Shown here: one piece after another, positions 14,072 through 41,783 of the stretch
Numbering within the stretch: the first letter of the stretch is position 1
Layout of the letters: each line of letters opens with the position of its first letter
Source of the DNA: Betaproteobacteria bacterium
GTDB taxonomy: Bacteria; Pseudomonadota; Gammaproteobacteria; Burkholderiales; SG8-41
NCBI GenBank assembly: GCA_016183675.1
Contig: JACPEF010000099.1
Location: forward strand, 1-41,783
Direction: 5' to 3'
Length of the DNA stretch: 41,783 nt
The notes under the pieces: generated by a model
The model's input: only the letters and a program-made list of their open reading frames with translations
What the model was told of the DNA's origin: nothing
The model's database searches: none
Position numbers and translations under genes: made by a program

Positions 14072-14099
14072 GAGTTCATCTCAACAAAAAATCAGAATT

Positions 14100-14742
14100 A
14101 ACCGCCAAGACGCCAAGAGAAGCGAAAATGAAAAGCGAAAATGAAAAGCGAAAACACGACGGACACCAGAATTCATCTCAAGAATCCCCTCGCCCAGAAT
14201 TCATCTCAAGAATCCCCCCGCCCCCTCTTTAGGGGGAGAGGGAGAGTTTTTGAGCCCGCCATTATTGATCGTTGCGGAAATGGTTGACACACCATTTCCG
14301 CACTGGACATTTCCCCTCGCCCTCTGGGAGAGGGGGAAGGGGCGAGGGTCGAGCGGCGTAAAGCATTTACGCAAAGCTCGATAGTTGTTATGTCTTGTCC
14401 TTCCTTGGCGTCTTGGCGCCTTGGCGGTTCAGTCGTTGATCTTATCGGCGTCCATCCCGTTCCAATGTCCGTTTTCCAAGCGCGTCGCGAACCATCAATC
14501 ATAAGGCGCTGCCGGAGGTCATTGGAACGGGATCCATCGGCGGCTCAAAGGTTTTCCTTCGTGTCCTTTGTGTCCTTTGTGGTTCGGCTTTTTTGTTCCT
14601 TGGCGGCCTTGGCGGCGAAAATTAAGGGATGAGGGAGGAGGGTTGAGGGATGAGGAATCAGTTTTCGTTTTCATCCGCGTTTATCTGCGTTTATCTGCGG
14701 TTCCACTTGATCTTCTTGGCGGCCTTGGCGTCTTGGCGGCTA
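14100..14742. repeat. Intergenic mosaic of short-repeat families
   Basis: CGCCAAGA/G 9-mers at 14100, 14404, 14599 and 14715; AAGCGAAAATGAA 13-mers; a 24-nt duplication at 14166/14194; CCCTC..GAGGG hairpins at 14211-14348; CTTYGTGTC 9-mers near 14556; TTTATCTGCG 10-mers near 14680. Confidence 0.8.
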
Positions 14743-27696: not shown

Positions 27697-27810
27697 GTCA
27701 GGAAACCGCGGAATAATTAGCCACCAAGGCGCCAAGAAAAGTTCTCAACGCAGAATCGGGAGCCGTAGAATCGGGGAAGCGGGGGTTGATTTTTGAGAAA
27801 GGATACACGA

Positions 27811-39638: not shown

Positions 39639-39651
39639 CAGCAAGACCTCT

Positions 39652-39744
39652 CACCGCAGAGGACGCGGAGGACGCAGAGGAACATCAGAAAGAGAACCGG
39701 GGCATTTCCTTAGTCGTCACTGCGTCACTTCGTCACCTCGTCAC
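39652..39744. repeat. 9-mer (CGCRGAGGA) array and octamer (CGTCACYK) array
   Basis: Read directly after the purB stop. Confidence 0.8.
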
Positions 39745-39758
39745 GCTTTATCAGAATA

Positions 39759-40304
39759 ATGGCTCGTGTTCCCCTCCTCGACGAGCACGCCAGCCCCGAC
39801 GTCGCCGCGCTCATCGCGAAGATCCGCGACGCGCGCGGGGGCCGGCTGCTCAACCTTTACCGCCTGCTGCTGCATAACCCGGCGGTGGCGGCCGCCTGGC
39901 TGGAGTTCAACAACGCGGTCCGCTACCAGACGGAGCTCGACGAGAGCGCACGGGAGCTTGCCATCCTGCGCGTCGCGATCCTGAACGGCGCCGACTATAT
40001 CCTGCGAATTCACGGCTCGCGCTACGCCGGAAAGGCGGGGCTCACGCAGGAACAGCTCGCGGCGCTTCCCGCCTGGCGCGACTCCGCGCTGTTCAGCCGG
40101 AGCGAGCGCGCGCTGCTCGCCTACGTGGATGCGATGACCCGCGACGTGGAAGTGCCGGATGACGTATTCAATGGCTTGCGGGGGCATTTCAGCGAACGCC
40201 AGGTGGTGGAGCTCACGGTGCTGATCGGCGCCTACAATATGCACACCCGCGTGCTGAAGGCGCTCAGGGTCGACCCCGAGCCGGCATCCGGCGAGAACAA
40301 CTGA
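39759..40304 (+). CDS. Carboxymuconolactone decarboxylase/AhpD-like protein
   Basis: LNLYRLLLHNP, RELAILRVA..NGADY...H, VELTVLIGAYNM. Confidence 0.85.
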   Translation: MARVPLLDEHASPDVAALIAKIRDARGGRLLNLYRLLLHNPAVAAAWLEFNNAVRYQTELDESARELAILRVAILNGADYILRIHGSRYAGKAGLTQEQLAALPAWRDSALFSRSERALLAYVDAMTRDVEVPDDVFNGLRGHFSERQVVELTVLIGAYNMHTRVLKALRVDPEPASGENN

Positions 40305-40470
40305 ACCGCCAAGATGGCATGGACGCCTCCCGCCCCCTTCGGGGGAGGCGAGCATGCCATCTTAATTAGGACAGGGAGGGTTGGCCAAGATGGAGCGGGG
40401 CTCTCACAATCCTGACGGCATCGTGTGCCACGGTGATTGTTCCAATCACGAACGGAAAGGAGAGCCCCAC

Positions 40471-41499
40471 ATGGATCGTACGCTATATGCACTGGATCTG
40501 GCAAAGCAGGTGTTTCAGGTGTTCTGGGTAGAGGAGCGCAGCCGCACGCGCGAGAAGCGGCTCAAGCGCGCGCAGGTGCTGGAGTTCTTTGGTGGGCTCG
40601 CGCCGGCGCGGGTGGCGATGGAGGCCTGTGGGAGCGCCCACTACTGGGGGCGCGAGCTCATGAAGCTCGGCCACGAGGTGATGCTCATCCACCCGCGCTA
40701 TGTGCGGGCCTTTGTGAAGACGAACAAGACCGACTGCGCCGATGCGCGGGCGATTTGGAGCGCGGCGCAACAGCCCGAGATGAGAGCGGTGCCGGTGAAG
40801 ACGGTGGAGAGCCAAACGATCCTCGCGCTGCACCGGGTGCGCGCGGGGCGGCGCGATATGCGCACGGCGCTGATGAACCAGTTGCGCGGGCTGCTCGCCG
40901 AGTTTGGGGTGGTGCTCAAGCGCGGGCGCGCAGCGGGGCTGGCGGAACTCTATCGCCGCTCCTCCGAGCTCGAGGCGAAGCTGCCCGGGACGATGATGAG
41001 CCTGCTGCGCGAGCAGTGCGAGGCGATCGCGCGGCTGGAGCGCGACGTGCGCGCGCTGGAAGGCCGCATCCGGGCTGCCCACGCGGGCGATGAGCGCTTC
41101 GCGAGCCTCACCGGCATCCCCGGCATCGGGCTGCTGGGGGCGAGTGCGCTGCTGGCCCGGGTCGACAACGGGCAGCAGTTTCGCTCGGGGCGCCAGGCGA
41201 GTGCGTTCGTCGGGATCGTGCCGCGCCAGCACGGCACCGGGGGAAGCGTGCGCCTGGGGGCGATCAGCAAGCGCGGCGATCCCTATCTGCGCACCCTCCT
41301 CATCCACGGGGCGCGCTCGGTGATCGCCAGATCCAAGCACCCCTCGCCGTGGTTGCAGGGGCTCATCGCGCGCCGCGGCAAGAACGTGGCGGCGGTGGCG
41401 CTCGCCAACAAGAACGTGCGGATTGCCTGGGCGCTGCTCAGGCGCGGCGGGCGCTATGAGCCGGATCATCAGGCCCGGGTGCTGGCAGTGCAGCATTGA
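40471..41499 (+). CDS. IS110-family DEDD recombinase/transposase
   Basis: ALDLAK, MEACG, KTDCADA (DEDD); GIPGIG, GIVPRQHGTGG, ISKRGDPYLRTLL, VALANK. AAGGAG RBS before ATG 40471. Confidence 0.96.
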   Translation: MDRTLYALDLAKQVFQVFWVEERSRTREKRLKRAQVLEFFGGLAPARVAMEACGSAHYWGRELMKLGHEVMLIHPRYVRAFVKTNKTDCADARAIWSAAQQPEMRAVPVKTVESQTILALHRVRAGRRDMRTALMNQLRGLLAEFGVVLKRGRAAGLAELYRRSSELEAKLPGTMMSLLREQCEAIARLERDVRALEGRIRAAHAGDERFASLTGIPGIGLLGASALLARVDNGQQFRSGRQASAFVGIVPRQHGTGGSVRLGAISKRGDPYLRTLLIHGARSVIARSKHPSPWLQGLIARRGKNVAAVALANKNVRIAWALLRRGGRYEPDHQARVLAVQH

Positions 41500-41559
41500 T
41501 GGCTGAGAGACGGAAAGGAGACCCTTCACGGGCTGGCGCAGGTTGATTGACGAGGTGAT

Positions 41560-41716
41560 GGCAGGACTGGTCGGACCGCGGGGAAGTGAAACCTGCTTGG
41601 CGTCGAGTGCCACGAGCACGTTGTCCAAGATGAGAGCTTCCCCGGCGAATTCCATCATGTGCCCGCAGGCTTATACACTGAGCCTGCACCACGAGGCCGG
41701 ATATAAGACTGCAGCC
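41560..41716 (+). ncRNA. Putative bridge/seek RNA (ends approximate)
   Basis: Two stem-separated guide pairs: target-matching CTTGGCGTC and CCAAGA; donor-matching AATTCCATC and ATATAAGA. Confidence 0.75.
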
Positions 41717-41747
41717 CTTACCACTCTGTCACCATCGAGAAAATCAC

Positions 41748-41775
41748 TTGCCAAGCGGGGGGCGTCCATATAAGA
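41748..41775 (+). promoter_or_regulatory. -35 half of the circle-junction promoter
   Basis: TTGCCA-17 nt-TAAGA(C) in the inserted form; becomes TAAGAT when joined to the left end. Confidence 0.65.
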
Positions 41776-41783
41776 CGCCAAGA

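Follow-up and report, generated by a model that had tools for sequence, protein, structure and literature searches.

An IS1111-type insertion sequence at the end of the contig

The stretch of DNA analysed here (the window, 41,783 nt) is the whole of contig C189 of its own assembly (G000; 3.0 Mb, 287 contigs, 65% G+C). Near its end a CMD-family gene (39759-40304) terminates in a TGA stop codon (40302-40304), and the remainder of the contig is occupied almost entirely by an insertion sequence (IS), whose features are collected in Table 1. The initial annotation had placed this element just after the stop at 40304; the position is right, with the refinement that the occupied site overlaps the last base of the TGA codon.

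Outside the 15-bp subterminal inverted repeats the element extends by AGATGGC (left) and ATA (right). For IS1111 members PMC11187229 gives subterminal inverted repeats of 7-17 bp, with 7 bp (left) and 3 bp (right) beyond them. The trinucleotide AGA is common to element and target (40312-40314 and 41773-41775), and the boundary may slide by up to 3 nt. The transposase matches PF01548 (8.1e-09) and PF02371 (4.9e-20) and, with 302.5 bits, exceeds the cut-off of 140 for NF033542 ("IS110 family RNA-guided transposase"); its length falls inside the 330-350 aa range of the IS1111 group. Its DEDD residues are D9, E51, D88 and D91, of which E51 and D88/D91 align with ISCro4 and D9 was assigned from the sequence itself. 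The stretch G248-I-V-P-R-Q-H-G-T256-G257 aligns with G-L-T-P-R-R-Y-E-S-G of ISCro4, so that the C-terminal GL-P----S(T)G motif of IS1111 is present with L replaced by I at the second position. The non-coding region is longer downstream of the gene (273 nt, 41500-41772) than upstream (159 nt, 40312-40470).

A scan of representative genomes with the transposase returned best relatives that were 28-57% identical, and neither a close copy nor a common target. Among plasmid-borne relatives the best reach about 50-52% identity over 96-99% of the length, one of them being annotated "ISPa11 family". Repeats beginning with ATGGAC recur in the distant relatives (34-51% identity) that we compared; 16 of 18 have ATA as their right extension and the other two GTA. 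By every sequence feature tested, the element is a member of the IS1111 group of the IS110 family.

The left end (40311-40366) is able to fold on itself, with AAGATGGCATG...CATGCCATCTT around GCCTCCC...GGGAGGC. We considered this hairpin as an intrinsic terminator and rejected it, a terminator scan calling none there. Solitary copies of the hairpin (about 55-60 nt, 89-91% identical) were found at L053 (G002:C1:249500-250050) and L054 (G008:C134:25800-26300), directly after AACCACCGAGA and AACCGCCAAGA and with no transposase behind; these may be insertion remnants, or a small hairpin element at the same site. At a further locus (L055, G021:C309:7000-7500) otherwise unrelated sequence surrounds an 80-nt fragment that shares 84% identity with the start of the transposase gene and is probably a decayed copy.

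Table 1. Features of the insertion sequence, its predicted RNA module and the host repeat arrays in the window
Feature	Position	Strand	Basis or remark
Unoccupied perfect target AACCGCCAAGACGCCAAGA, two 8-nt units	14100-14118	+	exact sequence match
Three-unit array (CCTTGGCG x3 on +)	14403-14426	-	contains exact 13-mer 14404-14416
Variant array, 9-nt period (CCGCCAAGG x2)	14598-14616	-	imperfect guide match
Array with exact 13-mer 14724-14736	14715-14740	-	sequence match
Variant array GCCACCAAGGCGCCAAGA	27720-27737	+	1 mismatch to the 13-mer
Left half of occupied target AACCGCCA	40304-40311	+	begins on last base of TGA stop
Insertion sequence, 1461 bp	40312-41772	+	ends by 7-bp left / 3-bp right extension rule
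Left subterminal inverted repeat ATGGACGCCTCCCGC	40319-40333	+	sequence comparison
Transposase gene, 342 aa	40471-41499	+	PF01548 + PF02371; NF033542
Predicted seekRNA / bridge-RNA target-binding module	41560-41663	+	predicted fold
Outer stem of predicted module	41560-41575 with 41651-41663	+	predicted fold
Inner stem of predicted module	41577-41587 with 41636-41647	+	predicted fold
Putative T guide CTTGGCGTC	41596-41604	+	complementary to target top strand GACGCCAAG
Small hairpin of predicted module	41607-41619	+	predicted fold
Putative B guide CCAAGA	41625-41630	+	equals target top strand; would pair with bottom strand
Right subterminal inverted repeat GCGGGGGGCGTCCAT	41755-41769	+	14/15 complementary to left repeat
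Right half of occupied target AGACGCCAAGA	41773-41783	+	runs to contig end

The element occupies a short tandem repeat of the host

It had been proposed from the window that the element targets an intergenic repeat of the host, three perfect copies of which lie unoccupied in the same stretch. All three were recovered, the 13-mer CCAAGACGCCAAG being present exactly at 14105-14117 (+), 14404-14416 (-) and 14724-14736 (-). When up to two mismatches are allowed, the window holds nine matches, compared with a mean of 1.37 in shuffled sequences, and none of 100 shuffles reached nine. The 19-mer AACCGCCAAGACGCCAAGA, reconstructed earlier as the empty site, is indeed the sequence of 14100-14118, and the variants noticed near 14599 and 27721 are real, corresponding to 2.1 copies of CCTTGGCGG (14598-14616) and to GCCACCAAGGCGCCAAGA. 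A minus-strand enolase-superfamily gene has its start codon (14071) 29 nt downstream of the target at 14100-14118, whose inverted partner is the array at 14403-14426, and the array at 14715-14740 abuts the TAG stop (14740-14742) of a minus-strand gene of the ketopantoate-reductase family.

Other repeats are found in the same intergenic DNA. The spacer 14072-14742 carries AAGCGAAAATGAA x2.7, a 28-nt unit x2.1, TCCTTTGTG x3 and ATCTGCGTTT x2.7, and several such short tandem-repeat families besides CGCCAAGR make the intergenic DNA of G000 a mosaic; GCAGATAAACGC occurs 245 times genome-wide. A 37-nt dispersed repeat built from 9-nt units, ACCTCTCACCGCAGAGGACGCGGAGGACGCAGAGGAA, is present at 39646-39682, with 40 BLAST matches on 35 contigs of G000 and many near-identical copies in genomes of the same genus.

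We collected the flanks of other copies of the element from G000, from the same-genus genome G021, from metagenome contigs and from contigs of four groundwater runs (X1-X4). All 17 left and all 11 right junctions lie in (C)CGCC[A/G/C]AG units, in one orientation, and none in unrelated sequence, as the proposed targeting of the repeat predicts. X1-X4 come from a single study, and the source sample of the window may be among them; the occupied state that they show is therefore not independent, whereas the empty allele described below is informative nonetheless. These runs added four left flanks and one right flank to the set.

Two left junctions (C189, C45) and two right junctions (C272, C270) come from G000, all in AACCGCCAAGA / CGCCAAGA. 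Both left junctions read AACCGCCAAGA|TGGCATGG and lie 0-1 nt past the stop codon of a real gene, which on C45 is a 366-codon ORF with a GC3 of 0.83. In G021, where the element ends are 91-96% identical, the element body is unassembled, and this genome contributes junctions only (five left and three right, at contig ends, in the same repeat) and no guide sequences. Four of its left flanks read ...AACCGCCAAGA (one of them TTACCGCCAAGA) and one, on C302, reads GGCGCCCAGA (CCCAGA); its right flanks are AAGA|CGCCAAGCCCGCCAAG, AAG|GCCGCCAAGAAG and AAG|GCGCCAAGAAG. Transposases that are 76-90% identical were found on seven metagenome contigs, six of which (L056-L061, 81-90% identical) have junctions, again all in the repeat.

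The final 141 bases of the window recur at the start of both C272 and C270, which diverge from each other past CGCCAAGA. The assembly thus branches at this point, with at least two diverging IS copies, which is why the window contig stops 8 nt past the IS; the right flank as it was first read holds only for the 8 bases that these two junctions have in common. More generally, repeat-targeted copies explain the contig breaks at these places in the assembly of this genome. Six loose-end flanks from the X1-X4 contigs gave only generic repeat matches in G000, which places the actual right flank of the window's copy outside the binned contigs.

An unoccupied allele in the same set of samples

A 506-nt contig from X1 matches 39854-40314 with 0 mismatches and then continues with CGCCAAGAAGAACAAG... 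and without the IS (continuation past 40314: CGCCAAGAAGAACAAGAACAATAATT). The unoccupied allele of the window's site therefore reads ...TGAACCGCCAAGA|CGCCAAGAAG..., which can also be written ...AACTGAACCGCCAAGA|CGCCAAGAAG..., and this read-level check returned the empty site just as it had been reconstructed, AACCGCCAAGA|CGCCAAGAAG. Contigs from X3 and X4 enter the IS from the same flank, reaching 40331, and the insertion is thus polymorphic within the samples of one study. Between the occupied and the empty allele the element is the sole difference, with no footprint and no target duplication. At the end away from this junction the X1 contig terminates in AGATGTGTATAAGAGACAG, which we take to be library adapter sequence.

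The right flank of the empty allele is that of neither C272 nor C270, which suggests that there are probably at least three copies of the element. The summed contig depth of the element is about 4x that of the flank in X1 and X2, a rough figure to which other organisms may contribute. Congeners were also searched by synteny for an empty site: G000 was not found to contain the gene that comes after the CMD gene in these relatives, and the intergenic DNA has diverged too far for an empty site to be defined in this way.

Two putative guide segments match the two halves of the target

The longest match between element and target is the 9-nt segment CTTGGCGTC, which lies in the 3' non-coding region within the predicted target-binding module. 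The predicted guide CUUGGCGUC would bind the right half-site by pairing with its top strand, and the predicted guide CCAAGA the left half-site by pairing with its bottom strand. The T segment lies 5' of the B segment (20-nt gap, 29 nt from start to start), both being in a loop that is closed by a conserved stem, CGCGGGGAAG / CUUCCCC-GCG. On the target, the footprints CCAAGA and GACGCCAAG overlap on GA, and together the two guides would cover CCAAGACGCCAAG, exactly the 13-mer identified in the initial annotation. The same arrangement, with the top-strand complement preceding the bottom-strand complement and the two overlapping in the target, is described for IS1111 seekRNAs in PMC11187229.

The guide segments differ between related elements in step with their targets. 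The window's element, L058 and L061 occupy CCAAGA sites and carry CTTGGCGTC and CCAAGA (A-type), and L057, L059 and L060 occupy AACCGCCGAGA|CGCCGAGA sites and carry CTCGGCGTC and CCGAGA (G-type), the downstream region of these relatives at CCGAGA/CGCCGAG sites containing CUCGGCGUC together with CCGAGA. L059 and L060 also have an A-type array (...CCGCCAAGACGCCAAGA...) that is unoccupied, some 25-40 nt upstream of the G-type site in which the element sits.

With a direct repeat as target, the T and B segments are mutually complementary (CUUGG/CCAAG). This leaves room for the view that the transposase protein alone reads the repeat and that the matches in the non-coding region are coincidental or purely structural: T and B can pair as an ordinary stem, and their A-to-G covariation taken by itself could reflect such an internal stem. 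The matching changes in the flanks argue for guiding: L057, L059 and L060 differ in both segments and in both flanks at once, and their G-type elements sit in G-type sites, in L059 and L060 beside an A-type site that was left unused. We therefore consider recognition by the protein alone improbable, the more so as the IS1111 seekRNA was required and programmable in the experiments of PMC11187229.

A further point against recognition by protein alone comes from 18 more distant relatives with identifiable ends, each of which was compared with its own, unrelated flanks at the homologous positions. A T-type match (at least 8 nt complementary to the right flank, starting from the junction) was found in 11 of the 18, and a B-type match (at least 7 nt of the left flank, across the junction) in 10. 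Seven relatives have both, always with T first and with starts 24-34 nt apart. A T match of at least 8 nt is missing in seven of the 18 (in L092 it is 7 nt at the junction), and a B match of at least 7 nt in eight.

The fit of the guides is not uniform. The B segment is only 6 nt long; some junctions deviate, among them the left one on C302 of G021; at the four right junctions that start AAG|G(C)CGCC the guide fit needs a G-U wobble and one mismatch; and the T segment of L056, UUUGGCGGC, has to be shifted by one base to fit its own right flank. A scan of 40200-41783 against Rfam 15, with E values up to 1, gave no matches. We also examined an upstream motif with a 10-nt match to the left junction, GCCAAGATGG (40384-40393), as a possible guide, and rejected it, since L057 keeps CCAAGA there despite its CCGAGA target. 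Candidate donor-binding segments are GATGGCA at 41557, ATATAAGA at 41701 and, as read from the alignment, CCATC near 41649; these are invariant among the relatives and so offer no covariation.

The host repeat in the genome and in the genus

In G000 the 13-mer CCAAGACGCCAAG occurs 139 times, on 72 of the 287 contigs, compared with 0.12 occurrences expected from base composition, which bears out the earlier proposal of many sites genome-wide. The 19-mer AACCGCCAAGACGCCAAGA occurs 25 times, and a reversed-pattern control had no occurrence in this genome. The units are spaced by 8 nt (n = 211) or 9 nt (n = 138) and form 236 arrays of 2-4 units each. The repeat, described at first as a multi-copy 9-mer, is thus multi-copy but has a unit of 8 or 9 nt, the period of the target itself being 8. 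As the 13-mer arises wherever two (C)CGCCAAGR units abut, the host offers well over a hundred sites to the element.

Most of these sites are intergenic, as had been claimed: 125 of the 139 13-mers fall outside crude ORF calls, which cover about 75% of the genome. A gene on the 5' side could be assigned for 192 arrays, 144 of which follow the stop of a co-oriented gene at a median distance of 26.5 nt (54 of them at no more than 15 nt), and the remaining 48 face a gene start. The idea that the repeat serves as a safe harbour therefore agrees with the majority of arrays, which lie after gene ends and where insertion spares genes, but not with about one quarter, including the target at 14100-14118.

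Neighbouring arrays less than 800 nt apart form 33 convergent and 3 divergent pairs, with a median gap of 136 nt. The convergent pairs bracket heterogeneous intergenic sequence, their interiors being unrelated to one another, and the arrays thus behave like the arms of REP-like extragenic palindromes. Examples of convergent inverted pairs in G000 are C15:1801-1940, C196:1372-1502 and C258:2909-3009; such pairs often begin at TAG, TAA or TGA on each side and in this resemble a bidirectional hairpin between two genes.

In the same genus the 13-mer is also abundant in G009 (106 copies), G019 (93), G020 (73) and G012 (61), other genus members having 0-2 copies and 16 genomes from other genera of the order 0-1. 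Arrays are present in six same-genus genomes that have no match to the IS (G004, G006, G009, G012, G015 and G016); the unpublished genome G011 enters our tallies only as a match-free genome, and no claim depends on it. Because the 13-mer is abundant in genomes without the IS, it is a host feature that the element exploits and not one that the element makes.

The opposite direction, in which the octamer arrays are footprints or copied ends of the IS and the element makes its own targets, could be suspected from the AAGA that arrays and IS have in common and from the clustering of arrays where IS copies sit. We regard it as very unlikely, given 236 arrays against few IS copies, the presence of arrays in the six IS-free genomes, alleles that differ by the exact element and retain neither footprint nor duplication, and arrays that form inverted brackets around unrelated interiors while the element ends have no octamer arrays. 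That CGCCAAGA on both sides represents the true termini of the element, the apparent target being an artefact of misplaced ends, is less credible still: although AGA is common to element ends and flanks and the window alone, stopping 8 nt past the IS, cannot decide the matter, the X1 empty allele keeps AACCGCCAAGACGCCAAGAAG without the IS, nearly all of the 139 13-mer copies are IS-free, the repeat abounds in IS-free congeners such as G009 and G012, and the flanks vary (A/G variants, 8- or 9-nt spacing) where the element ends are constant.

A full-text literature search with the sequence of the repeat (CCAAGACGCCAAG, CTTGGCGTCTTGG, CGCCAAGACGCCAAGA, CGCCAAGGCGCCAAG) yielded an unrelated primer match only. 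The arrays are unusually dense and lineage-restricted, and terminator or mRNA-end structures are candidate roles for them. One speculative possibility, which we put forward tentatively, is that the (C)CGCCAAGR arrays form the arms of a REP-like system, as yet undescribed and peculiar to part of the genus, whose inverted pairs begin no more than a few bases from stop (or start) codons, that the IS lineage has co-diversified both guides with the repeat variants (AAG versus GAG) across hosts, and that self-pairing of the guides could mask the guide RNA until the target is met.

Other short-repeat arrays follow the stop codon of the CMD-gene homologue in congeners (L114, L116 and L118), examples being CTCGTTG... 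paired with ...ACGAG and GTGATGA... paired with ...CCATCAC. It seems, therefore, that inverted short-repeat brackets are a habit of the whole genus and that their units are specific to the species.

A proposed model for RNA-guided insertion, and its relation to known systems

Taken together, these results make it very likely that 40312-41772 is an active IS1111-type element and that an RNA from its 3' non-coding region probably directs its insertion into the host repeat. The reading given in the initial annotation is thus supported, with corrections to the unit length, the position of the cut and the mechanism, which would be one of RNA guidance. In the proposed scheme a short RNA, produced from the 3' non-coding region and bound by the transposase, would set the insertion site, and insertion would proceed from a circular intermediate, in a single orientation and with no target duplication.

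The crossover would take place inside the AAG that is common to the target (CCGCCA-AGA-CGCC) and the circle junction (ATATA-AGA-TGGC). Two right junctions in G021 and one each in L056 and L061 read ATATAAG|G(C)CGCC; these are informative here, as the base after AAG comes from the target, pointing to an exchange within the AAG of donor (ATATA-AG-ATGGC) and target (CCGCCA-AG-R). The cut had originally been placed after AAGA; the site was correct, and the crossover probably lies 2-3 bases further left, in AAG. In the circle, and only there, TTGCCA (41748-41753) followed after 17 nt by TAAGA|T would form a promoter, as judged by eye. No back-joint of 41772 to 40312 was seen among the X1-X4 contigs, where, these being assembled contigs, its absence is uninformative.

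RNA-guided targeting of REP, attC or transposon-end sequences by IS1111/IS110 members is already known (PMC11187229, PMC11208160, PMC12288879), and the element is a new example of this known mechanism. It is distinguished by a target at the junction of tandem repeat units, by guides that are complementary to each other, by natural retargeting through single bases and by an empty allele from the same population. It provides a clean natural case of RNA-guided transposition, as read from sequence alone, that combines many independent insertions with an empty allele and with single-base retargeting of two guides beside unused sites. IS1111 targets therewith extend beyond REP palindromes, attC and transposon ends to the junction of two short tandem units, and the 13-nt target and its guide pair could serve in bridge/seekRNA engineering.

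One close parallel is ISPa11, an IS1111-family element that targets REP sequences of Pseudomonas aeruginosa. As described in PMC11187229, it likewise has a DEDD transposase, subterminal inverted repeats, a 3' non-coding source of the seekRNA with T located 5' of B, and a multi-copy extragenic host repeat as target; in our case the RNA is a prediction. The two are only about 50% identical in protein, the ISPa11 target is a REP palindrome whereas the target here is the junction of two direct tandem units of 8/9 nt, and the guides here, with a direct repeat as target, complement one another. For ISEc11 and ISXne4, the same source records guides of close relatives that differ in step with their flanks, as do those of the window's element, L058 and L061 compared with L057, L059 and L060. 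Here the difference is a single A-to-G change per guide, which would retarget the element to a variant of the same repeat family as opposed to an unrelated site.

The bridge RNA system of IS621 and the IS110 group resembles the present one in having a DEDD recombinase and two short guides that read both strands and overlap at the core, as set out in PMC11208160, which also contains the prediction that IS1111 members encode a bridge RNA in their right end. The sequence relation to IS621 is weak (E 8e-11 to PDB 8wt6, in the C-terminal part only), and our element differs from it in the position of the predicted RNA, 3' of the gene, and in its long inverted repeats. Another IS1111 member, mentioned in PMC11187229 and cited in PMC11208160, reportedly uses one arm of an inverted-repeat pair as its site; in contrast, the arrays described here bracket heterogeneous intergenic sequence and not a recognisable transposon.
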